From positions 1-6,833 of IMG/VR virus record IMGVR_UViG_2802429221_000012: DNA of 6,833 bases. One strand, given 5' to 3'. The translations under genes were made by a program, and so were the position numbers. Positions 1 to 6,833 of this stretch are shown here, piece after piece. This stretch comes from a virus. Its lineage: Duplodnaviria > Heunggongvirae > Uroviricota > Caudoviricetes. Positions within the stretch are counted from its first letter, which is position 1, and each line of letters opens with the position of its first letter. The notes under the pieces are model-generated. The model made no database searches, was not told the origin of the DNA, and worked only from the letters and a program-made list of their open reading frames with translations.

Positions 1-1005
1 TTAATCCCCCGTGGACACTGCGTGGACACTCACGCCACCTTTCAGCGGATTAAGGGCCACCGCATCCTGCAGGTAATCCGGTGCAAAATGTGCATATGCC
101 ATTGTTTGCTGAATGGTTGCGTGACCAAGAATCTTCTGAAGTGCAATAATGTTTCCTCCGTTCATCACAAAATGGCTGGCGAACGTATGCCGCAGCACAT
201 GTGCAGCCTGGCCTTTTGGTAAATCGGGCTTAACTCTTTTCAGCGCCAAGCAGAATTCCCGGTACTTCACCTCAAACAAGCCGCCTGTTTCTCTGGTTTT
301 GATCGCCTCACAAACTGCCTGCGAAATTGGCACTGTTCTCTTTCGGCCATTTTTGGTTTCAAGAAACGTTACACGGTTATGAACTATCTGTTCACCACGA
401 AGCTTACAAGCTTCACTCCAGCGCGCCCCTGTGCTTAAACACAAAAGCGCAACACGCCAGTAGTCGCCCTCCAGTGTATCGAGCAATAGCGCTACTTCCT
501 TCTGGGACAGGAAAGCCATTTCTCGTGGAGATACATAAAGAATAGAAATCCCCCTTACCGGATGCTCTGCATCCCAGAGGCCTATTTTCTTCAGTACGGT
601 AAACATTCCGGATAACCGATTCATGTATCTGTTAGCAGATGACGGTTTCAATCCATCAGCTATCTTTTGAGAACGCCACGCGATAATTTTCAGCTTATCA
701 AGATCCACAGCCTGCATATCAGCGCCAAGCTCATTGATTATGTTGCGCAGTTGTTTTCGATCTTCTTCAGCCTTACGCCTGTGCTGGCCGTGATACATCC
801 ACCACAACTCAAGCAAATCATTTAGCGTTCGACGATCACGGTAGCCCTGTATATATTCCCGCTTTTCAGCGTTCGCCATGATGTAGCGTTCAGTGGCCAC
901 CGCTACCGATTTTTTGTCAAATACCTTACGCACGCGCTTTCCCTTGCGTCCGTTCGGCCTGATGTCCAGCAAATAACGACCATCTTCGAGCTTCTTAATC
1001 GACAT
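1..1005 (-). CDS. int: Phage tyrosine integrase (site-specific recombinase), P2 Int-like, 334 aa
   Basis: Track ORF 1..1020(-) begins at a TTG; the first ATG is at 1005..1003 (MSIKKLEDGRY...), preceded on the coding strand by GGAGGG (complement of 1013-1018) at 7 nt spacing. C-terminal region contains HVLRHTFASH and QTMAYAHFAP, the H-x-x-R and catalytic-Tyr motifs typical of tyrosine recombinases. N-terminus and overall length resemble P2 Int from memory. Stop codon is at window positions 3..1. Confidence 0.9.
   Translation of the reverse strand: MSIKKLEDGRYLLDIRPNGRKGKRVRKVFDKKSVAVATERYIMANAEKREYIQGYRDRRTLNDLLELWWMYHGQHRRKAEEDRKQLRNIINELGADMQAVDLDKLKIIAWRSQKIADGLKPSSANRYMNRLSGMFTVLKKIGLWDAEHPVRGISILYVSPREMAFLSQKEVALLLDTLEGDYWRVALLCLSTGARWSEACKLRGEQIVHNRVTFLETKNGRKRTVPISQAVCEAIKTRETGGLFEVKYREFCLALKRVKPDLPKGQAAHVLRHTFASHFVMNGGNIIALQKILGHATIQQTMAYAHFAPDYLQDAVALNPLKGGVSVHAVSTGD
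11..30. repeat. Tandem direct repeat GTGGACACT-gc-GTGGACACT inside the 3' end of int; candidate integrase arm-type binding sites
   Basis: Seen directly: 9-bp unit at 11-19 and 22-30 with an 11-bp period. From memory, P2-family Int arm sites are short direct repeats containing GTGGACA near the int 3' end; that recollection is unverified. Confidence 0.3.
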
Positions 1006-1101
1006 CGCGAAGCCCTCCAATGAACCGCTCTACAATTTCTCCAGCCTCTTTCCAGCAATAATCAGACCAGACAAAAAGCAGGTCTAACCAGTTTTCTGGC
1101 C

Positions 1102-1422
1102 TCAGCGGGGTGATTTTTGGTTTGTTTCGGTTGAAACCTGATCGCCCTCCGAATCGAAGAAGCCATCAAGAGAGAGAGGCGGAGCAATCTGCCCCGTCGC
1201 AGCATTAGTTTGATTAAACATCACCCAATCCGAATACTTCCGAAAACGAGGATGATTCAAAATCAGGAGTAACGTTTCTCCAGGTATCATTCTTCCCAAT
1301 ATTTCATAATTTTTGAGATTGTTTTGAGATACCCCTGTCACCTCTTCCATCTCTCTACGTGACAATCCCTCTGCCTCTCGAATCAGGCGAAGTTTTTCTC
1401 CAAGGCTTGATTTATGGATCAT
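1102..1422 (-). CDS. C: Immunity repressor, P2 C-like HTH protein, 106 aa
   Basis: Track ORF 1102..1440(-) begins at GTG; first ATG at 1422..1420 (MIHKSSLGEKLRL...). Helix-turn-helix-like segment LSRREMEEVTGVSQNNLKNYE, and a C-terminal ...NQTNAATGQIAP... stretch resembling P2 C as I recall it. Divergent from cox, upstream of int, as in the P2 C-int operon. Confidence 0.8.
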   Translation of the reverse strand: MIHKSSLGEKLRLIREAEGLSRREMEEVTGVSQNNLKNYEILGRMIPGETLLLILNHPRFRKYSDWVMFNQTNAATGQIAPPLSLDGFFDSEGDQVSTETNQKSPR

Positions 1423-1537
1423 ATGTGATCTAAACTCCACGATATTGGGTTACATGTAATACAAAACATTCAAATAGCCAAAATAAGCCTATATAAGCCA
1501 TTTTGGGCCATTTGGACGAATTAAGGAGATTACCACA
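1423..1537. promoter_or_regulatory. Divergent Pe/Pc lysis-lysogeny switch region with candidate early promoter and operator repeats
   Basis: 115-bp AT-rich spacer between divergent C and cox starts. Candidate rightward promoter: -35 TTCAAA (1469-1474), 17-bp spacer, -10 TATAAG (1492-1497). Direct repeat TAAGCC at 1484-1489 and 1494-1499 flanks the -10; tandem CCAtttTGG / CCAttTGG at 1498-1506 and 1508-1515 overlaps the predicted transcript start. cox RBS AAGGAG at 1523-1528. Promoter and operator assignments are by eye and not experimentally anchored. Confidence 0.5.
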
Positions 1538-1825
1538 ATGAGCGAATCAGAGCTTGAGGGGTTCATTCAGGTAGCACCATATCCACTTGAAGCGGTGCCA
1601 TATCAACTATTTGCCAAGATGATTGGTCGCAAAGAATCAACCGTCAGAACCATGATTGACGCTGCAAAGTTACCAACGATTGACTTTGTGAAACCAGGTT
1701 CAGTGAAGACGCGAGCATCAGAAAACTGGGTATATCTGCCAGCATTTAACGCAGGTATGCGCAAAGCATTTTTTGATCAGCCGAAAGAGCGCCGCGACGC
1801 ATGGTTGCTCTGGCTGGGTCTTTGA
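1538..1825 (+). CDS. cox: Cox-like excisionase / early transcriptional regulator, 95 aa
   Basis: ATG 1538 with AAGGAG 9 nt upstream. Translation contains ...VPYQLFAKMIGRKESTVRTMIDAAKLPTID...NWVYLPAFNAG...RRDAWLLWLGL, closely resembling P2 Cox as recalled (WVYLPAWN, WLMWLGL). First gene of the rightward operon, divergent from C. Confidence 0.85.
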   Translation: MSESELEGFIQVAPYPLEAVPYQLFAKMIGRKESTVRTMIDAAKLPTIDFVKPGSVKTRASENWVYLPAFNAGMRKAFFDQPKERRDAWLLWLGL

Positions 1826-1836
1826 CGAGGATTTTT

Positions 1837-2178
1837 ATGAGACAACAACGTAATTCACGCTTCCGCAACGGTGCGGAACGCCATGCTAACCGTTTCGCTA
1901 CCAGTGCATCACGTAGCAACTCTCGCTACAGCCTGAGCGAAACACACGCAACGCCGGATGGCTACCCAGTAAAACAAATCGGCGAGCACGCCTGGTTGAT
2001 TGAGAAAGCTGGAATCGTGGTCCACAAATGCCCACGCAATCCGTTTACCGGAAACCGCATTTTTGCACTGAGCAGCGGCGACAATCAGTTCGGGCAGGAT
2101 TTCACATTATACGAAGCACTTCGCACGGTTGATCGTCTGCTTCGCGGGCAAAGTTTTATTAAACAGGCTGATTTATAA
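1837..2178 (+). CDS. Hypothetical phage early protein, 113 aa, basic N-terminus
   Basis: In-frame ATG at 1837 within track ORF 1801..2178, GAGG at 1827-1830 six nt upstream; begins 11 nt after the cox stop. Translation MRQQRNSRFRNGAERHANRF... has no domain I can recognise. Confidence 0.6.
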   Translation: MRQQRNSRFRNGAERHANRFATSASRSNSRYSLSETHATPDGYPVKQIGEHAWLIEKAGIVVHKCPRNPFTGNRIFALSSGDNQFGQDFTLYEALRTVDRLLRGQSFIKQADL

Positions 2179-2188
2179 CAGGTGCTTT

Positions 2189-2467
2189 ATGACCAAAGAG
2201 CATGCACAAGGTGTATTTATCCGTTTTATTGATTTTCGCGGTGAACTGTTATTACGTGCATCAGCTATTGATGCTGTAGCCCAGGCAGAAAAAAAAGCAG
2301 TTACTCACGTTTATGCGAACAACGCACAACTGATCGTGGAGCTTCCGTACCAGACCGTTCGCGAAGCCATTAACGAAGCTGAAAAAGCGTGCCAGGCTAA
2401 TAGCGATGAACCCTATATCGAAATTATTTGTATGGATTCAGAAGCTGAAATTAAGAAAGCAGATTAA
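2189..2467 (+). CDS. Hypothetical phage early protein, 92 aa, acidic
   Basis: In-frame ATG at 2189 within track ORF 2129..2467, 10 nt after the previous stop (MTKEHAQGVFIRF...). Same strand and tight spacing as the rest of the operon. No recognisable domain. Confidence 0.6.
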   Translation: MTKEHAQGVFIRFIDFRGELLLRASAIDAVAQAEKKAVTHVYANNAQLIVELPYQTVREAINEAEKACQANSDEPYIEIICMDSEAEIKKAD

Positions 2468-2478
2468 AGGGCGTTGTG

Positions 2479-2721
2479 ATGGGCAAAGAATATAAAACTC
2501 TCATTAACAAAGCACTTGAGCGTTTTTATTTTCGCTTAAGCGCATCAGGCGCTCATGCTGAACGTGCAGCCCGTGACTCATTGACCAGGGCAATCCGGAG
2601 TCTGTATGACGTGGCTTTTTACGCTGATGATCTGGATGCACTTAACGAACTTTCCGAGCTGATCTGTGCCGCAGAATGCGGGGAACATATTGAACCGTAT
2701 AAGCTGGGGAATATTGCATGA
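2479..2721 (+). CDS. Hypothetical phage early protein, 80 aa
   Basis: ATG at 2479 (track ORF starts at GTG 2476), 11 nt after the previous stop. Translation MGKEYKTLINKALERFYF...; stop TGA 2719-2721 overlaps the start of the next small ORF. Confidence 0.6.
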   Translation: MGKEYKTLINKALERFYFRLSASGAHAERAARDSLTRAIRSLYDVAFYADDLDALNELSELICAAECGEHIEPYKLGNIA

Positions 2722-2831
2722 GTATATTTATCTCATGGCTTGTTCTGATTATTTCGGTGGTCTGCGCCATTGGGATTATGCGAATTATTCATTCAGTAAA
2801 AAAGATTGAACGCTTTTTCACTGGTGAATAA
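2718..2831 (+). CDS. Small hydrophobic peptide, 37 aa, predicted single transmembrane helix with basic C-terminus (not in supplied ORF track)
   Basis: ATG 2718-2720 overlaps the upstream TGA stop (ATGA junction). Translation by hand: MSIFISWLVLIISVVCAIGIMRIIHSVKKIERFFTGE, stop TAA 2829-2831. About 20 hydrophobic residues then KK/R-rich tail. It is short, so a chance ORF in this AT-rich stretch is possible. Confidence 0.4.
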   Translation: MSIFISWLVLIISVVCAIGIMRIIHSVKKIERFFTGE

Positions 2832-2924
2832 CGATACAAATAAAACATCAAATTAAATAAGAAAACGTGAAAACCATCCGTATTAACGGAGGTATTCGCA
2901 CACGAAAATAACGGAGATACAAAA

Positions 2925-3335
2925 ATGCACGCAAAAGAAGAAGGTATCATCAGAGCACTGAAAGAAATTTCAAAGACAGAAAACGAAGTAGCGAAAAAAG
3001 CCATAGCAAATAATCATATGGACGTCGCAACCCACACACTGATAGTCGCAAGAGTCACGGCAGAAGCAGCCGAAATTATCGCACAACAGGATGCTGAACT
3101 GGCGGTTCTCAGAACACAACCAGTCACCGGACTGGATTTGTCTAACACCGGACGCCTTATTTACACAATTGGCTCGGAGCTACAGCGATACACCATTATC
3201 GCCGGGTTACAGGATAAATACCTGATCACTCCTCACCCCATAAGGGAATCAGAAATTCTGACAAATCTCCGCCTGATAGAGCGCTCTCAAGTCGCATTCA
3301 TTGATGACGCACAGTGCACCGTATTTAACGCATAG
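2925..3335 (+). CDS. Hypothetical protein, 136 aa
   Basis: ATG 2925 with GGAG at 2913-2916 (8-nt spacing), preceded by a 93-bp AT-rich spacer (2832-2924) that could hold an internal promoter. Translation MHAKEEGIIRALKEISKTENE... has no recognisable domain. Confidence 0.65.
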   Translation: MHAKEEGIIRALKEISKTENEVAKKAIANNHMDVATHTLIVARVTAEAAEIIAQQDAELAVLRTQPVTGLDLSNTGRLIYTIGSELQRYTIIAGLQDKYLITPHPIRESEILTNLRLIERSQVAFIDDAQCTVFNA

Positions 3336-3358
3336 GGTTACTGGACAAAGGGGGCGCA

Positions 3359-3562
3359 ATGGCAATTAAGCATTTTCCCGTCGTTCGCTTTACCTCCAGA
3401 GGGCGCGAATACGAGGTCGACGAACGCCTGATTACCACTATCGACAAACATCGTTCGGAAAAGGATGCACACCACATCTACCTCACTGACGGCACTTACT
3501 TCTGCGCCACGAATGTGGTGCGGGTGAACCTTATCCGACAGGTACAGGAGTCACGCAGATGA
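3359..3562 (+). CDS. Hypothetical small protein, 67 aa; first gene of a translationally coupled chain
   Basis: ATG 3359 with AAAGGGGG at 3347-3354. Stop TGA 3560-3562 overlaps the next ATG at 3559 (ATGA). C-terminal tail ...VRVNLIRQVQESRR. Confidence 0.6.
   Translation: MAIKHFPVVRFTSRGREYEVDERLITTIDKHRSEKDAHHIYLTDGTYFCATNVVRVNLIRQVQESRR
3520..3562 (+). repeat. Copy 1 of a duplicated ~43-nt gene-junction segment (C-terminal tail codons, Shine-Dalgarno, ATGA overlap)
   Basis: 3534-3562 TCCGACAGGTACAGGAGTCACGCAGATGA versus 3916-3944 TCCGACGGGTACAGGAGTCACACGGATGA: 26 of 29 identical by manual alignment, with weaker similarity extending about 14 nt upstream. Confidence 0.7.
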
Positions 3563-3825
3563 CCATTCTGGACTATATCGCTACTCATCCGGGTTGTAGC
3601 GGCGGAGAAATCGCCGCAGCACTGAATACTCCAACCACAGCCATTAATGCTGAGTTACGCCGACTTTGGCGCAGCGGCTTAGTCATCAGAACAAACCGCA
3701 GCACAGGTGGTCACGCTCGCAAAACAGGAGGCCGGGCTTCTTACCACGTAAACCCGATGCCGTTCGGGTGTGGCAACCCACTAACCCACATGTTTAACCA
3801 GCTACTGAAGGAAGCCAGAGCATGA
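3559..3825 (+). CDS. Putative winged-helix DNA-binding protein, 88 aa
   Basis: ATG 3559 overlapping the upstream stop, with AGGAG at 3546-3550. N-terminal segment LDYIATHPGCSGGEIAAALNTPTTAINAELRRLWRSGLVIR looks like a winged helix-turn-helix; this is inferred from the pattern, not from a search. Confidence 0.6.
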   Translation: MTILDYIATHPGCSGGEIAAALNTPTTAINAELRRLWRSGLVIRTNRSTGGHARKTGGRASYHVNPMPFGCGNPLTHMFNQLLKEARA

Positions 3826-3944
3826 GCACCATCAACCACCAGGAACCACGCGAACTGGCGACTGCCGTACAAAGAATGTCTACCCAAAAATCACTGCCAT
3901 TCCGTGTGAGCCCTGTCCGACGGGTACAGGAGTCACACGGATGA
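3822..3944 (+). CDS. Small ORF, 40 aa, coupled at both ends (not in supplied ORF track)
   Basis: ATG 3822-3824 overlaps the upstream TGA (3823-3825); stop TGA 3942-3944 overlaps the next ATG at 3941. Hand translation: MSTINHQEPRELATAVQRMSTQKSLPFRVSPVRRVQESHG. Its 3' end repeats the 3' end of the 3359-3562 gene. Confidence 0.4.
   Translation: MSTINHQEPRELATAVQRMSTQKSLPFRVSPVRRVQESHG
3902..3944 (+). repeat. Copy 2 of the duplicated ~43-nt gene-junction segment
   Basis: See copy 1. Both copies end in an ATGA stop/start overlap and encode an (I/V)R(Q/R)VQES tail on the upstream protein. Confidence 0.7.
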
Positions 3945-4159
3945 ACAGAAGGAGAATTACACGCAGACATCGCCGCACGCGCCTGAGCTCCCCGCCAACA
4001 CTAAAGGAACTCATTCAAAGCGAGATCGGTGATTTCTTCGCTGGGTTTGGATCACCTGGCGAACCAGAAACACCAGAAGCGATGCAGCGCGAACTCATGA
4101 TGCGCATCGATAACGTTTTTGACTTTTTCCTGAATAACAAAAGAGAGCAACCGACATGA
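3941..4159 (+). CDS. Hypothetical protein with arginine-rich N-terminus, 72 aa
   Basis: ATG 3941 overlapping the upstream stop. N-terminus MNRRRITRRHRRTR has 8 Arg in the first 14 residues, followed by an acidic C-terminal half (EIGDFF...EPETPEAMQRELMM...). Stop overlaps the next ATG at 4156. Confidence 0.6.
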   Translation: MNRRRITRRHRRTRLSSPPTLKELIQSEIGDFFAGFGSPGEPETPEAMQRELMMRIDNVFDFFLNNKREQPT

Positions 4160-4359
4160 ACGAAAGGACCTGGTTTCGCGCATACATGTGGGCGCTGGTA
4201 TGCGTCCTCTTTTCTCTCATTCTGTATGCAGGACTACTCCCCCGAATGATTTCATCAGACAGCTCCTTCCTGGTATTGCTGGGCATTTTCATTGCCATGC
4301 TGTACCCGGCAGGCGTTGTTCGCCTTTTCAGTAAATACATCAAGGAAATCAAACAATGA
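4156..4359 (+). CDS. Small integral membrane protein, 67 aa, two predicted transmembrane helices; putative partner of the downstream SPFH protein
   Basis: ATG 4156 overlapping the upstream stop. Two hydrophobic stretches (WALVCVLFSLILYAGLL and FLVLLGIFIAMLYPAGVV) separated by a short polar loop. Stop TGA 4357-4359 overlaps the SPFH gene ATG at 4356. Confidence 0.65.
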   Translation: MNERTWFRAYMWALVCVLFSLILYAGLLPRMISSDSSFLVLLGIFIAMLYPAGVVRLFSKYIKEIKQ

Positions 4360-5186
4360 AGAAATTCAAACTCTTTCAGATTATCCCGCTTTTTGCCGCC
4401 ATCCTGCTGGTTGGTTGCGATCGCGTTGAACCAGGTAATGTGGGCATCAAAGTCAACAAACTGGGCGACGATAAAGGCGTCGGTGAAGTGGTTGGCGTTG
4501 GCCGCTACTGGACAGGCTGGAATACCGAGGTTTACATCTTCCCGACCTTCAAACAAATGAAGACCTACGATGAGCCATTCAGCTTTCAGATGAGTGACGG
4601 CACAACCATCGGCTATCACATCGGTGTGGCCTACAAGGTTGATCCATCCAAAGTTACCACAGTGTTTCAGACCTACCGCAAAGGCGTGGATGACATTACC
4701 GACACTGACCTGCGCCAAAAGATCGCCGATGCACTCAACCGACTGGCCAGCAAAATGACCACCGATAAGTTTATCGACGGTGGCAAGTCTGAACTGCTGG
4801 ATTCAGCACTTAAAGACATTCAGGCAGAAATGACACCTATCGGCATTCAGGTAATGAGCCTCTCTTATGTGGGTAAGCCGGAATACCCGCCAACCGTTAT
4901 CGACAGCATTAATGCCAAAGTCACGGCAAACCAGAAAACTCTGCAACGCGAGCAGGAAGTCAAGCAACGCGAAGCAGAAGCCAACATGTTGCGCGCAGAA
5001 GCTGCCGGACAGGCTGATGCCATTCGCACAAAAGCCCAGGCTGAAGCCGACGCCATTCGTTTACGCGGTGAAGCTCTGCGCCAGAATCCCGGCGTTATGG
5101 AGCTGGAAGCAATCAACAAATGGAACGGCACGCTGCCGCAATACATGACCAGCAATACCGCTGTTCCGTTTGTTCCGGTGAAGTAA
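4356..5186 (+). CDS. SPFH/band-7 (stomatin/prohibitin/HflK-C-like) family lipoprotein, 276 aa
   Basis: ATG 4356 with AAGGAA at 4342-4347. N-terminus MKKFKLFQIIPLFAAILLVGCDR is a signal peptide plus lipobox (LVGC); Asp at +2 after the Cys suggests inner-membrane retention in enterobacteria. C-terminal Ala/Glu/Gln/Arg-rich predicted coiled-coil segment ...QREAEANMLRAEAAGQADAIRTKAQAEADAIRLRGEALRQNPGVMELEAINKW... is characteristic of SPFH-domain proteins. Family assignment is from motif recognition only. Confidence 0.75.
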   Translation: MKKFKLFQIIPLFAAILLVGCDRVEPGNVGIKVNKLGDDKGVGEVVGVGRYWTGWNTEVYIFPTFKQMKTYDEPFSFQMSDGTTIGYHIGVAYKVDPSKVTTVFQTYRKGVDDITDTDLRQKIADALNRLASKMTTDKFIDGGKSELLDSALKDIQAEMTPIGIQVMSLSYVGKPEYPPTVIDSINAKVTANQKTLQREQEVKQREAEANMLRAEAAGQADAIRTKAQAEADAIRLRGEALRQNPGVMELEAINKWNGTLPQYMTSNTAVPFVPVK

Positions 5187-5192
5187 TTAAAC

Positions 5193-5237
5193 CCGGCCGG
5201 TGAAAATCGCTGGCCGGAGCAGTATCAGGATTTTTTT
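5193..5237 (+). terminator. Candidate terminator-like hairpin downstream of the SPFH gene
   Basis: CCGGCCGG (5193-5200) pairs with CTGGCCGG (5210-5217), an 8-bp GC-rich stem with one G-U pair and a 9-nt loop. The T7 run (5231-5237) is 13 nt downstream, so this is atypical for an intrinsic terminator. Confidence 0.3.
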
Positions 5238-5338
5238 AGCATGCCGTTCTCACAAAAAAACCGCTTGCCATGCCGCAATCAGTCAGGTTACATTTCCGCT
5301 GTACCTCATAAAACGGGTGCCGGGTTTCGCAGCCTGCT

Positions 5339-5544
5339 GACTAGCAAAGCGCACAACCGCGCCAGCGGTTTTTTTGTGCGTACTGTATTGCCACGTCTTT
5401 TTCGCACACGAATTATGGCGGGGCGTACGGGGCCGACTTCGGTCGGGCCGGGTTCTTTGCTAGCCGGTACTGCGAACCTCGTACGTCTCGCCACCCACAG
5501 TTTCGCAGCTCTGGATGGTGAGTTTTCAAAACTTACTAGCAAAG
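5339..5544. repeat. Three copies of a 9-10 bp motif ACTAGCAAAG (two direct, one inverted) in the non-coding spacer; candidate regulator binding sites
   Basis: ACTAGCAAAG at 5339-5348 and 5535-5544 (flanks CTnACTAGCAAAGnG also match); inverted copy CTTTGCTAGC at 5455-5464. The core GCTAGC is palindromic. The third copy directly abuts the AAGAGG RBS (5542-5547) of the 5555 gene. Confidence 0.4.
5351..5379 (+). terminator. Candidate intrinsic terminator (short GC stem plus T7 run)
   Basis: ACCGC (5356-5360) / loop GCCA / GCGGT (5365-5369) followed immediately by TTTTTTT (5369-5375). Flanking GCACAA (5351-5356) and TTGTGC (5374-5379) are also complementary. The stem is short, so strength is uncertain. 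Confidence 0.4.
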
Positions 5545-5554
5545 AGGCCACACC

Positions 5555-5785
5555 ATGGCAAACCGCAAACAGCACCGCGCTATCGCGGAGCGTCGTCACA
5601 TCCAGACTGAAATCGATCGCAGACTCACCCGCGCTGCACACATCGCCTTTATCATGCAATCCAACACATTGCACAGACTCAACAGCACTATTTCAGCCGA
5701 CTACTGCGCCGCTGTATTCAGCTATCTGGCGGAAGACCTCCTGTCTCTTCAGGATCTCATCCAGCAGCAAAACAAACTCCATTAA
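5555..5785 (+). CDS. Hypothetical phage early protein, 76 aa
   Basis: ATG 5555 with AAGAGG at 5542-5547 (7-nt spacing). Translation MANRKQHRAIAERRHIQTEIDRRLTRAAHIAF...; same strand as, and upstream of, the replication gene. Confidence 0.6.
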   Translation: MANRKQHRAIAERRHIQTEIDRRLTRAAHIAFIMQSNTLHRLNSTISADYCAAVFSYLAEDLLSLQDLIQQQNKLH

Positions 5786-5858
5786 TTCCTGTTCCGGGCC
5801 TTTCCTGCACCTTGCGGCGGGAGGCCTTCGCACATCTGTAGTAAAGAGGATTGCCGCA

Positions 5859-6224
5859 ATGATTCTCGCCAACGACTTTCTTGAATACCTGCTCAACACA
5901 GAGCGTGATCTTGCCGTTCGCGTGCGTGAACGTTATGACATGTACCTGAAATCCCTGCCTGTACCGCAGCTCGCTGACGGAAAATTTGTTATTGATGGTC
6001 GCTACATGATTGACAGCCACGAGGGGAATTACAGGCTTTACCGCATTGAAGCCGGCACCCCGTCCGTTATTGGCATTTACCAGCGCCCATCCTCTGCGAT
6101 CGTCGATGTGATTGCCGACAGCATCCGCATCACACATCGCCATGCCGACACAGAAGACACCGTGCTGGAAATTCAGCGGCTGGCTACAGTCTGCCGCGAC
6201 ACCCTGAATGGCATGACGAAGTAA
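5859..6224 (+). CDS. Hypothetical phage early protein, 121 aa, immediately upstream of replication gene A
   Basis: Track ORF 5241..6224 is an open frame with a low-complexity S/T/R-rich 5' region that overlaps the terminator-like hairpins and the 5555 gene. The plausible start is the in-frame ATG at 5859, with AAGAGG at 5844-5849 (9-nt spacing). Translation MILANDFLEYLLNTERDLAVRVRERYDMYLK...; stop TAA 6222-6224. Confidence 0.6.
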   Translation: MILANDFLEYLLNTERDLAVRVRERYDMYLKSLPVPQLADGKFVIDGRYMIDSHEGNYRLYRIEAGTPSVIGIYQRPSSAIVDVIADSIRITHRHADTEDTVLEIQRLATVCRDTLNGMTK

Positions 6225-6230
6225 ATCACT

Positions 6231-6833
6231 ATGACAGCAGAGTACATCAGGGACTGGCAACAACCGCGCCACGCAGTGGGGCGTGAAGGAACGGGGATCC
6301 CCGCTCCTGAATCCGCGCTTTCCTCCTGGCTGGATGCCTACCGGGCAGAGAACGAGCGCCGCCAGGAAATAGCTGATGCGGCGTTCTCCGCCACACCGCT
6401 GGGCAACCTGATTAATAAAAGCCTGGACGCACAGGAAAAACAGGACAAAACCATCACACTGGCAGGAGACGCCAGAAAACAGGCACGCGGCGCGGTGGAT
6501 GAAGCCATGGCCTCGCTGCGCCTGCTGCCGTCCTATCTGCGCGATCCGCTTATTCGCCACCTCTCCTTCCTGCGCAAAAAACAGGAAGCCGATCGCCGGA
6601 AAGGCAAAAAGAGCTGGCAGGCTGAACGCTACGCGTGCGGAACCCTGCGCAAAATATTCGAACGTCTGGACCGCACCGACCACCGCTGGCTGACACCGGG
6701 TTATCGCTCCCTTGCCGGACGCGAACGCCTGGATGATTTGCTTTACCTACCGCAGCTCAACAAACACCAGATACAGACACTGGCCACCATGACGGCGGCG
6801 ATGTTCAGCAGCACCTTCGAAAAACTCTGCGAT
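6231..6833 (+). CDS. A: Replication initiation endonuclease, P2 gpA-like, N-terminal 201 codons (3' end beyond the window)
   Basis: ATG 6231, 6 nt after the previous stop; frame is open to the window end by manual translation (MTAEYIRDWQQPRHAVGREGTGIP...LRLLPSYLRDPLIRHLSFLRKKQ...AAMFSSTFEKLCD). The RLPSYLR and F..EKLCD segments resemble the N-terminal region of P2 gpA as I recall it; position after the early genes matches P2. Absent from the ORF track because it has no stop inside the window. Confidence 0.7.
   Translation, partial: MTAEYIRDWQQPRHAVGREGTGIPAPESALSSWLDAYRAENERRQEIADAAFSATPLGNLINKSLDAQEKQDKTITLAGDARKQARGAVDEAMASLRLLPSYLRDPLIRHLSFLRKKQEADRRKGKKSWQAERYACGTLRKIFERLDRTDHRWLTPGYRSLAGRERLDDLLYLPQLNKHQIQTLATMTAAMFSSTFEKLCD

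Follow-up and report, generated by a model that had tools for sequence, protein, structure and literature searches.

A probable P4-type RNA immunity cassette in front of an epsilon-like gene in a P88-like P2-type prophage

The stretch of DNA analyzed here (IMG/VR record IMGVR_UViG_2802429221_000012, positions 1 to 6,833; hereafter the window, 6,833 nucleotides in full) is the early region of a P88-like, P2-type prophage of Escherichia coli. The whole window was 95-97% identical to E. coli chromosomes, at a site adjoining pdxB. Genes for a P2-type integrase (1-1020) and a P2-C-type repressor (1102-1422) are on the minus strand. The plus strand carries cox (1538-1825), a run of small open reading frames (ORFs), a pair of genes for a membrane protein and an SPFH protein (4156-5186; SPFH 4356-5186), a gap (5187-5554), a gene for a 76-amino-acid (aa) protein (5555-5785), orf121 (5859-6224, 121 aa) and, directly after orf121, the replication gene A for a P2-type rolling-circle endonuclease, which starts at 6231. 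The gap was 90-94% identical to the genomes of phage P88 and other Xuanwuvirus (Peduoviridae). An earlier note on this DNA had offered three explanations for it: a small RNA, a terminator/antiterminator checkpoint in front of the replication genes, or the scar of a cargo insertion. Our results make it very probable that positions 5246-5554 and the gene at 5555 form a P4-type RNA-based secondary immunity cassette, which encodes a leader RNA and an antisense RNA and acts on a homolog of the P4 epsilon gene.

The features that the note had listed in the gap (repeats, hairpins and the overlap of a repeat with a ribosome-binding site) are all present, with small corrections to their coordinates. 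The motif ACTAGCAAAG, said to occur three times, is located at 5340-5349 (not at 5339, which was off by one), at 5535-5544 and, inverted, at 5455-5464. The inverted copy has one mismatch, and its exact 9-mer is 5455-5463. Three matches were observed compared to 0.30 expected, and none of 200 shuffled sequences reached three. As proposed, the third copy is located at the ribosome-binding site of the 5555 gene, where it overlaps the Shine-Dalgarno sequence AAGAGG (5542-5547). A second repeat triplet had escaped notice. It consists of GTTTCGCAGC, found at 5324 and again at 5500, and the complement CTGCGAAC, found at 5470. The GC content of the gap is 54% versus 50% for the whole window. The 384-nt region folded better than its shuffled versions (z = -5.4).

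We scanned all Rfam families against the window and accepted membership when a match scored at least the curated gathering score of the family. The C4 antisense RNA family (RF01695) matched 5411-5498 over the full length of the model (positions 1-87) with 82.8 bits (gathering score: 45; E = 9.9e-16), and the isrK family (RF01394) matched 5301-5375 (model positions 1-77) with 61.7 bits (gathering score: 50; E = 9.2e-12). With two curated families above their gathering scores, the small-RNA reading of the gap proved correct. The c4-a1b1 family (RF03163) gave a sub-threshold match at 5288-5340 that overlaps the isrK match (19.6 bits; gathering score: 46.7; E = 0.19). We rejected filing the region under this family, since it fits the isrK model better, though a1 and b1 sites exist and co-vary (see below).

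For comparison we used an alignment of 25 distinct P88-like cassettes that precede an epsilon-like gene, with the window included among these relatives (alignment A1). The predicted leader, similar to IsrK and P4 seqA, extends from 5301 to 5377 and consists of two hairpins (5301-5320 and 5321-5336), a single-stranded linker and a Rho-independent terminator (5355-5377). The hairpin that had been described as terminator-like at 5351-5379 is indeed a canonical intrinsic terminator, with a 6-bp stem (5355-5360/5365-5370), a GCCA loop and seven U residues at 5371-5377, and it is invariant in all 25 cassettes. The predicted antisense RNA, similar to C4 and P4 CI (5411-5498), has an outer stem (5416-5432/5477-5493) and two hairpins at 5433-5446 and 5447-5468. 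The first of these is the UUCG hairpin of the earlier note, which had quoted its sequence correctly for 5431-5449; the hairpin proper in the consensus fold is 5433-5446. The minimum free energy fold of these 88 nt was the C4 consensus three-way junction (-47.7 kcal/mol, z = -4.8). The C4 helices were 100% paired in the 25 relatives, and the outer stem showed two compensatory pairs.

A putative sigma-70-like promoter precedes the leader (5265-5294; -35 TTGCCA at 5265-5270, an 18-nt spacer and -10 TACATT at 5289-5294). It matches the consensus, ends 6 nt before position 1 of the isrK model and is placed to start an RNA at about 5301. Its hexamers are near-invariant in alignment A1 and its spacer is variable; promoter scans found the same site in P88, and the geometry is the same as that of PisrK in Gifsy-1. 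A further promoter-like site at 5388-5416 was discarded: its -35 varies among the relatives (TTGCCA, TCGCCA, TCGTCA), it was not called in P88, and its -10 is the 5' flank of C4, so that the outer stem would be missing from any transcript starting there. Just 5' of the -35 of the putative promoter, the sequence CACAAAAAAACCGCTTGCC (5249-5268) is almost the reverse complement, at 18 of 20 positions, of 5361-5380, the 3' half of the IsrK terminator with its U-tract. The wider complementarity (5241-5268 with 5361-5388) is largely an A-run facing the U-run of the terminator, and both arms are invariant in the relatives. It could be an UP-like A-tract of the promoter or an antiterminator pairing specific to transcripts from the early promoter Pe.

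The repeats fall into place on the C4 fold. The inverted copy of the motif is the loop of the second C4 hairpin (b', UCUUUGCUAG, 5454-5463) and CUGCGAA is the single-stranded C4 junction (a', 5470-5476). Therefore, the direct copies are predicted to be target sites. Two of these are in the leader, a1 (UUCGCAG, 5326-5332) in the loop of its second hairpin and b1 (CUAGCAAAG) at 5341-5349. The other two follow the C4 RNA: a2 (UUCGCAG, 5502-5508) is just 3' of it, and b2 (CUAGCAAAGA, 5536-5545) overlaps the Shine-Dalgarno sequence of the 5555 gene. Judged by sequence, the ACTAGCAAAG copies are b1, b' and b2, and UUCGCAG/CUGCGAA/UUCGCAG are a1, a' and a2, as in systems of the P1 immI and P4 immunity type. 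The earlier note had seen one of these triplets and had not recognized it as an antisense/target set; its interpretation as a whole is partly supported.

The cassettes in alignment A1 are nearly invariant except at these six sites, which co-vary. The a'-a2 helix was 100% paired and the 10-bp b'-b2 helix 95.6% paired, with 5 of 7 and 6 of 10 pairs, respectively, changed on both sides. The corresponding values for pairing with the leader were 99.4% for a1-a' (5 of 7 pairs changed on both sides) and 99.1% for b1-b' (7 of 9 pairs). None of 500 shuffles reached the observed values, and pairing dropped to 27-52% when the partner was slid by 1-3 columns. The compensatory changes that the earlier note had suggested looking for in related prophages are thus present, with five to seven pairs per helix changed on both sides and the antisense/target pairing kept. 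At the level of sequence, such covariation marks a determinant of immunity specificity that is under diversifying selection and in which antisense and target strictly co-evolve.

The same comparison defined the boundaries of the cassette. All 24 epsilon-type relatives are P88-like early operons, and in each of them the cassette is followed without interruption by the epsilon-like gene, orf121 (or a distant homolog) and A. Homology of the cassette begins at about 5246, and the sequence upstream of it (5187-5245) varies with the neighboring gene. In the window this neighbor is the SPFH gene. The membrane-protein and SPFH pair is an optional cargo found in 4 of 24 related early operons (the window, L013, L070/P88 and L048); its insertion site lies between the orf3941 homolog and the cassette, and a 3' hairpin comes with it. 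This hairpin, just after the SPFH stop codon, is the one that had been described as terminator-like at 5193-5237. We found a real 11-bp stem with a 3-nt loop at 5193-5217, which is non-canonical as a terminator: it was not called by the terminator scan, and the T-run at 5230-5236 is 13 nt away from it. Since the sequence upstream of about 5246 depends on the neighbor and the hairpin is present in alignment A1 only in SPFH-carrying relatives, it belongs to the cargo. The hairpin is found in P88 as well, and since viable P88 was obtained by treatment with mitomycin C (PMC5285337), we infer that it is not an efficient terminator.

These boundaries also decide the fate of the proposal that inserting the SPFH cargo created the gap as a scar or junction and that its hairpins are fortuitous. 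In its favor, the first 60 nt (5187-5245) vary with the upstream neighbor. However, the sequence from about 5246 onwards is conserved upstream of the same genes in relatives without the SPFH cargo, it matches curated RNA families, and about one in five complete E. coli genomes (1152 of 5426) contains the cassette with a coverage of at least 80%. We regard the scar explanation as refuted, with practically no probability left to it.

The antisense/target arrangement extends beyond the P88-like cassettes. A pattern scan of viral contigs gave 120 C4-type loci, 99 of them non-redundant. Perfect complements of a', 7 nt or longer, were present in 97 of the 99, upstream as well as at a fixed offset immediately downstream; for b', such a complement was found downstream in 82 and upstream in 72 loci. 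In a mismatched control using loops from other loci, complements were found in 4-10%. In almost every locus, b2 ends within the Shine-Dalgarno sequence, 7-11 nt upstream of the start codon. The 99 loci comprised 38 b' and 26 a' specificity types, and the epsilon-type cassettes alone had 13 a/b combinations. The a and b specificities are freely combined (a' CUGCGAA, for example, occurs with at least five different b' loops), which suggests recombination between the a and b recognition modules. In four loci with the b' loop UGCGUUUG (L022, L040, L056 and L064), b1 and b2 pair only via G-U wobble, b2 with one mismatch in addition; in the same loci the exact-match search found GCAAAC within the first codons of the epsilon-like gene instead. 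C4 cassettes were also found before genes other than those of anti-repressors, namely a Tad2-like (Thoeris anti-defence) ORF and a helicase-like ORF of more than 760 aa (L049, L105; L004, L075). Another locus (L055) has two cassettes 870 nt apart with different specificities, each preceding a Rha gene.

Strong diversification of the a and b sites, as seen here among the epsilon-type cassettes and overall, is the pattern expected of immunity determinants. It is consistent with a role in competition between elements, an idea that has been raised for lambdoid prophages (PMC3632133): in incoming P88-like phages or P4-like satellites of matching a/b specificity, the C4-like RNA would silence anti-repressor or replication genes, and the targets of the epsilon-like protein would be the C repressors of other P2-type prophages rather than its own. 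Some E. coli genomes indeed carry up to four cassette copies, and no covariation was seen between the epsilon variants and the resident C repressor. However, no a/b combination was common to epsilon-type, P4 Kil-type and Rha-type cassettes in our sample, which argues, on sequence grounds, for orthogonal cassette classes, and cross-talk with P4-like satellites gets no support in this sample. We consider inter-element competition as the main role of the cassette rather unlikely.

The gene directly under b2 (5555-5785) is annotated "derepression protein" in its P88 ortholog. In BLASTP, its 76-aa product was 29% identical to P4 epsilon over 66 aa (E = 2e-8), and their alignment (A2) revealed motifs in common, for example FSYLxxD. 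These data support homology of the 76-aa protein to P4 epsilon. The P4 protein (E) is reported to be an anti-repressor that binds the P2 C repressor (PMC2995052), and by analogy the 76-aa protein may bind and inactivate a P2 C-type repressor. No NCBIfam family matched the 76-aa protein, orf121 or P4 epsilon, and orf121 showed no similarity to P4 orf151 or orf106. A scan with the epsilon alignment, one genome per species, found only three loci (in E. albertii, in Salmonella and on a "Vagococcus" contig). The last of these, L125, is labelled Vagococcus sp. (Firmicutes) and has an enterobacterial P88-like epsilon gene (67% identity); it is probably an assembly contamination or a mislabelling. Between the stop codon of the epsilon-like gene and the Shine-Dalgarno sequence of orf121, there is a GC-rich hairpin (5796-5828, GGCCUUUCCUGC...GCGGCGGGAGGCC; about -24 kcal/mol for 5786-5858) without a U-tract, which is conserved in the relatives.

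The earlier note had seen no convincing ORF in the gap. This is not quite right, since an open frame (5241-6224) spans the whole of it and its openness is conserved in relatives. The frame resembles eta of P4 in its position; as an eta-like frame it covers 5241-5858, crossing the cassette and then the epsilon-like gene in the +1 frame, and in the window it continues in frame to 6224 (in L003 the spanning frame is at 8168-8812, minus strand). Among 92 non-redundant C4 loci, 77 had this frame open across the whole cassette, with the other two frames closed. The start codon ATG 5241 is conserved in most epsilon-type relatives and is located upstream of the internal -35; in relatives without the SPFH cargo it comes shortly after the stop codon of the preceding gene. 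In most relatives, the TGA of the frame overlaps the ATG of the gene at the orf121 position as ATGA, even where this next gene is only 23% identical. In the window (5838-5861) and in L023 this junction reads TGTAGTAAAGAGGATTGCCGCAATG, which looks like a recombinant of two junction types found in the relatives. Where the frame overlaps the epsilon gene, the +1 frame had no stop codon in 24 of 24 distinct variants, compared to 1-5 stops in the other frame; in synonymous resampling it stayed open in 1.6-33% of trials per epsilon sequence. A conserved AUG in this frame at the 5' base of the C4 stem (5415-5417), found with the same offset and frame in 87 of 94 C4 loci, corresponds to the first AUG of orf45 in Gifsy-1. 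These observations suggest translation as a general second input to C4-family switches.

An open frame of this kind could also mean that the region mainly encodes a protein, an Ash/Eta-like product starting at 5241, and that the RNA similarity is a by-product. Apart from the frame itself, a weak Phage_ASH match and the occasional RefSeq name "ash family protein" point in this direction. Protein constraint, however, would not predict that changes at the variable positions keep sites paired over distances of up to about 200 nt, and the two covariance models matched far above their thresholds, whereas the predicted protein had no domain match above cut-off. The evidence fits better with translation as a conduit through the cassette than with a conserved protein product, and we consider a mainly protein-coding region very improbable.

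The closest known counterpart of the cassette is the immunity region of the satellite P4. The same two Rfam families occur there in the same order just upstream of epsilon (isrK 60.8 bits, C4 74.9 bits); in the P4 literature, these RNAs correspond to seqA and CI RNA (PMC3632133, PMC10111431). The P4 layout is PLE - seqA - CI RNA/seqB - seqC within eta/kil, followed by epsilon, orf151, cnr/orf106 and alpha. The logic of a1 b1, b' a' and a2 b2 is the same as well, with GUGAGAA and UUCACAGG in P4 facing UUCUCAC and CCUGUGAA, and in both P4 and the window an epsilon homolog and then a replication gene follow downstream. There are also differences. In P4, the ORF that covers seqA and CI is eta (214 aa), and its end coincides with the start of epsilon; the frame in the window crosses the epsilon-like gene in a different reading frame and is coupled to orf121. 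The gene whose ribosome-binding site carries the target differs too. In P4-like loci this gene is kil, which lies within eta and likewise extends to the start of epsilon; in the window, b2 is placed on the ribosome-binding site of the epsilon-like gene. Furthermore, the element in the window is a full P2-type phage (int, C, cox, A endonuclease) and not a P4-like satellite (alpha primase, sid, psu, delta). For P4, it has been reported that translation of eta from the upstream late promoter prevents immunity-specific termination, and that the constitutive promoter is inside eta, so that its transcripts are untranslated and terminated (PMC10111431). The checkpoint in front of the replication genes proposed in the earlier note is a fair description and agrees with the reported working of the homologous P4 cassette (PMC10111431, PMC3632133).

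The Gifsy-1 locus is similar in its layout: IsrK (79.3 bits) comes first, then a C4-family element (69 bits) and, directly after it, the anti-repressor gene anrP. The AUG at the base of its C4 stem (A107; L127 34208-34210) is the first start of orf45, which runs through the C4-family RNA, and the TGA of orf45 overlaps the ATG of anrP 45 codons later. Translation of orf45, its coupling to anrP and read-through of the IsrK terminator by part of the transcripts were shown experimentally, IsrK was found to activate orf45-anrP translation in trans, and a stable processed RNA, STnc1160, is present downstream of IsrK (PMC4825925). In contrast to the window, Gifsy-1 is lambdoid, and the gene under control encodes an anti-repressor of the Rha/Ant type with about 190 aa. 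Activation by IsrK is emphasized in the published model, and the downstream element (STnc1160) was not identified there as a C4-family RNA.

The homology to the isrK locus raises the possibility that activation in the manner of Gifsy-1 dominates. The C4 element would then mostly be a cis-inhibitory fold, and the IsrK-like RNA would open the mRNA in trans, favoring induction over immunity. Indeed, IsrK in trans increased anrP translation more than 100-fold in Gifsy-1, deletion of the isrK promoter abolished spontaneous phage release (PMC4825925), and in our alignment the pairing of a1/b1 with a'/b' was conserved as strongly as the downstream pairing. On the other hand, processed C4/CI RNA is reported to be a trans-acting repressor in P1 and P4 (PMC8198154, PMC3632133, PMC10111431), and each C4 precursor also carries a1/b1, so that stoichiometry alone does not predict activation by IsrK. 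The views of activation and repression are not exclusive, and the dominant state is at issue rather than the identity of the element. We take dominant activation to be possible, at clearly less than even chances.

In the immI region of P1/P7, a1 b1, c4 and a2 b2 precede icd/ant1/ant2, with an anti-repressor as the output (PMC8198154, PMC8546580); the Rfam C4 family was built on the c4 RNA of these phages. P1/P7, by the description of P1, and the window share a two-segment processed antisense RNA (processing in the window is putative), targets on both sides of it and a small first gene whose ribosome-binding site holds the distal target. By the same description, the window differs in having no homolog of icd and no Ant1/2, in the IsrK-type terminator between b1 and C4 and in the epsilon-family protein that is controlled.

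Within the P2 family, phage 186 has a small anti-repressor, Tum, that is under LexA control. Like 186, the prophage in the window belongs to the P2 family and has a gene of its own for a small putative anti-repressor; unlike in 186, control in the window would be exerted by antisense RNA. No LexA-box-like site was found in or near the cassette, so that SOS control at the cassette is unsupported.

To summarize, the P4-type secondary immunity cassette is the explanation that we favor. Its basis at the sequence level is formed by two RNA families, the complementarity and covariation of six sites, the overlap of b2 with the Shine-Dalgarno sequence, the homology to epsilon, the operon position and the open frame. 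The RNA families, the mechanism and the link of IsrK/C4 with seqA/CI are already published (PMC3632133, PMC10111431, PMC4825925), and only the host phage group is new.

Several points weigh against this explanation or parts of it. The Pfam family Derepression (PF25738) matched the 76-aa protein with 22.1 bits, below its cut-off of 27 (E = 1.3e-4). There is no correspondence between the epsilon variants and either the resident C repressor or the a/b specificity; in L023, the C protein is 35% identical and the epsilon-like protein 100% identical. Because epsilon variants do not follow the C-repressor type, a strict partnership with the "own" repressor is unsupported, and the epsilon-like protein may act broadly or on other prophages. 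Concerning the spanning frame, Phage_ASH (PF10554) matched it in the window with 22.4 bits, below the cut-off of 26 and compared to 59.7 for the P4 ORF. Its ATG 5241 is without a strong Shine-Dalgarno sequence, its conservation could partly result from constraints at the RNA level, and in the window and L023 a one-nucleotide difference at the Shine-Dalgarno region of orf121 fuses it to orf121 (327-aa ORF), with no ATGA end. The promoter, RNA ends, processing and trans-repression are all transferred from homologous systems. Moreover, these systems differ in direction, since C4/CI represses in P1 and P4 and IsrK activates in Gifsy-1, which leaves the net behavior of the cassette uncertain.

With these reservations, the immunity cassette could work as follows. 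The promoter at 5265-5294, which is probably independent of the C repressor, would drive the leader independently of Pe. Most transcripts from this internal promoter would stop at 5377, and a read-through precursor would be processed into a stable C4-like RNA, a step that depends on RNase P in P1 and P4. This RNA would pair with a2/b2 on read-through transcripts or on transcripts of a superinfecting phage of the same specificity, blocking translation of the epsilon-like gene and favoring termination at a point ahead of orf121 and A. In the leader, a1/b1 would compete for the antisense segments, so that the ratio of leader to C4 RNA would tune the switch. More speculatively, ribosomes on Pe transcripts would start at ATG 5241 and translate through the terminator and the C4 structure, overriding both. 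Such translation would deliver ribosomes to orf121 and allow expression of A in lytic growth, in parallel with the report on P4 eta.

In this scheme, the gene most directly controlled would be the epsilon-like gene at 5555, and not A, around which the earlier note had framed the control. Its argument that expression of A from Pe needs read-through or a separate promoter has a plausible answer by analogy, namely partial read-through of the short terminator together with the translated cassette-spanning frame on Pe transcripts. Taken to its full extent, the scheme describes a two-input gate and a complete P4-style module: transcripts from the internal promoter would be untranslated, terminated and silenced by C4, whereas Pe transcripts would be translated, escape both the terminator and the antisense RNA and feed orf121 and A. 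We put this extended version forward tentatively and consider it doubtful in its entirety.

Current annotation does not reflect the cassette. In RefSeq it is unannotated or called "ash family protein" (E. coli hits H73, H75 and H76), and the P88 GenBank record has a minus-strand hypothetical ORF over it (L002 5033-5221 minus; the window counterpart is 5306-5674 minus). We rejected the latter ORF (122 aa) as spurious, with no family match and an overlap with both RNAs; the database annotations over the cassette look like artefacts of a conserved RNA. The search for tRNA and tmRNA genes found none. Phage_ASH (PF10554) matches the ORF that overlaps the CI/C4 RNA and not epsilon, and a census of P4-like satellites used PF10554 as the epsilon marker (PMC8628076). 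In the literature we came across no account of this cassette for P2-type phages of the P88-like group; the P88 and PhiSM papers are silent on it.

With the cassette recognized, an entire group of P2-type prophages can be annotated correctly, and an apparent gap in their early operon is explained. The combination of an RNA immunity system with an epsilon-type anti-repressor, best known from the satellite P4, is thus also found inside helper-type phages, beside their replication genes. For specialists on P2 and P4, the epsilon homolog under direct b2 control in a helper-type phage may be of interest, as may the out-of-frame overlap of the eta-like frame with the epsilon-like gene. The diversified a and b sites are natural orthogonal antisense/target pairs that could be reused as regulators. 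Furthermore, the cassette offers a tractable system for asking how P2-type prophages without a LexA-controlled anti-repressor are induced. If the two-input gate proved true, the immunity and helper-derepression genes of the satellite would share ancestry with a module of the helper lineage.

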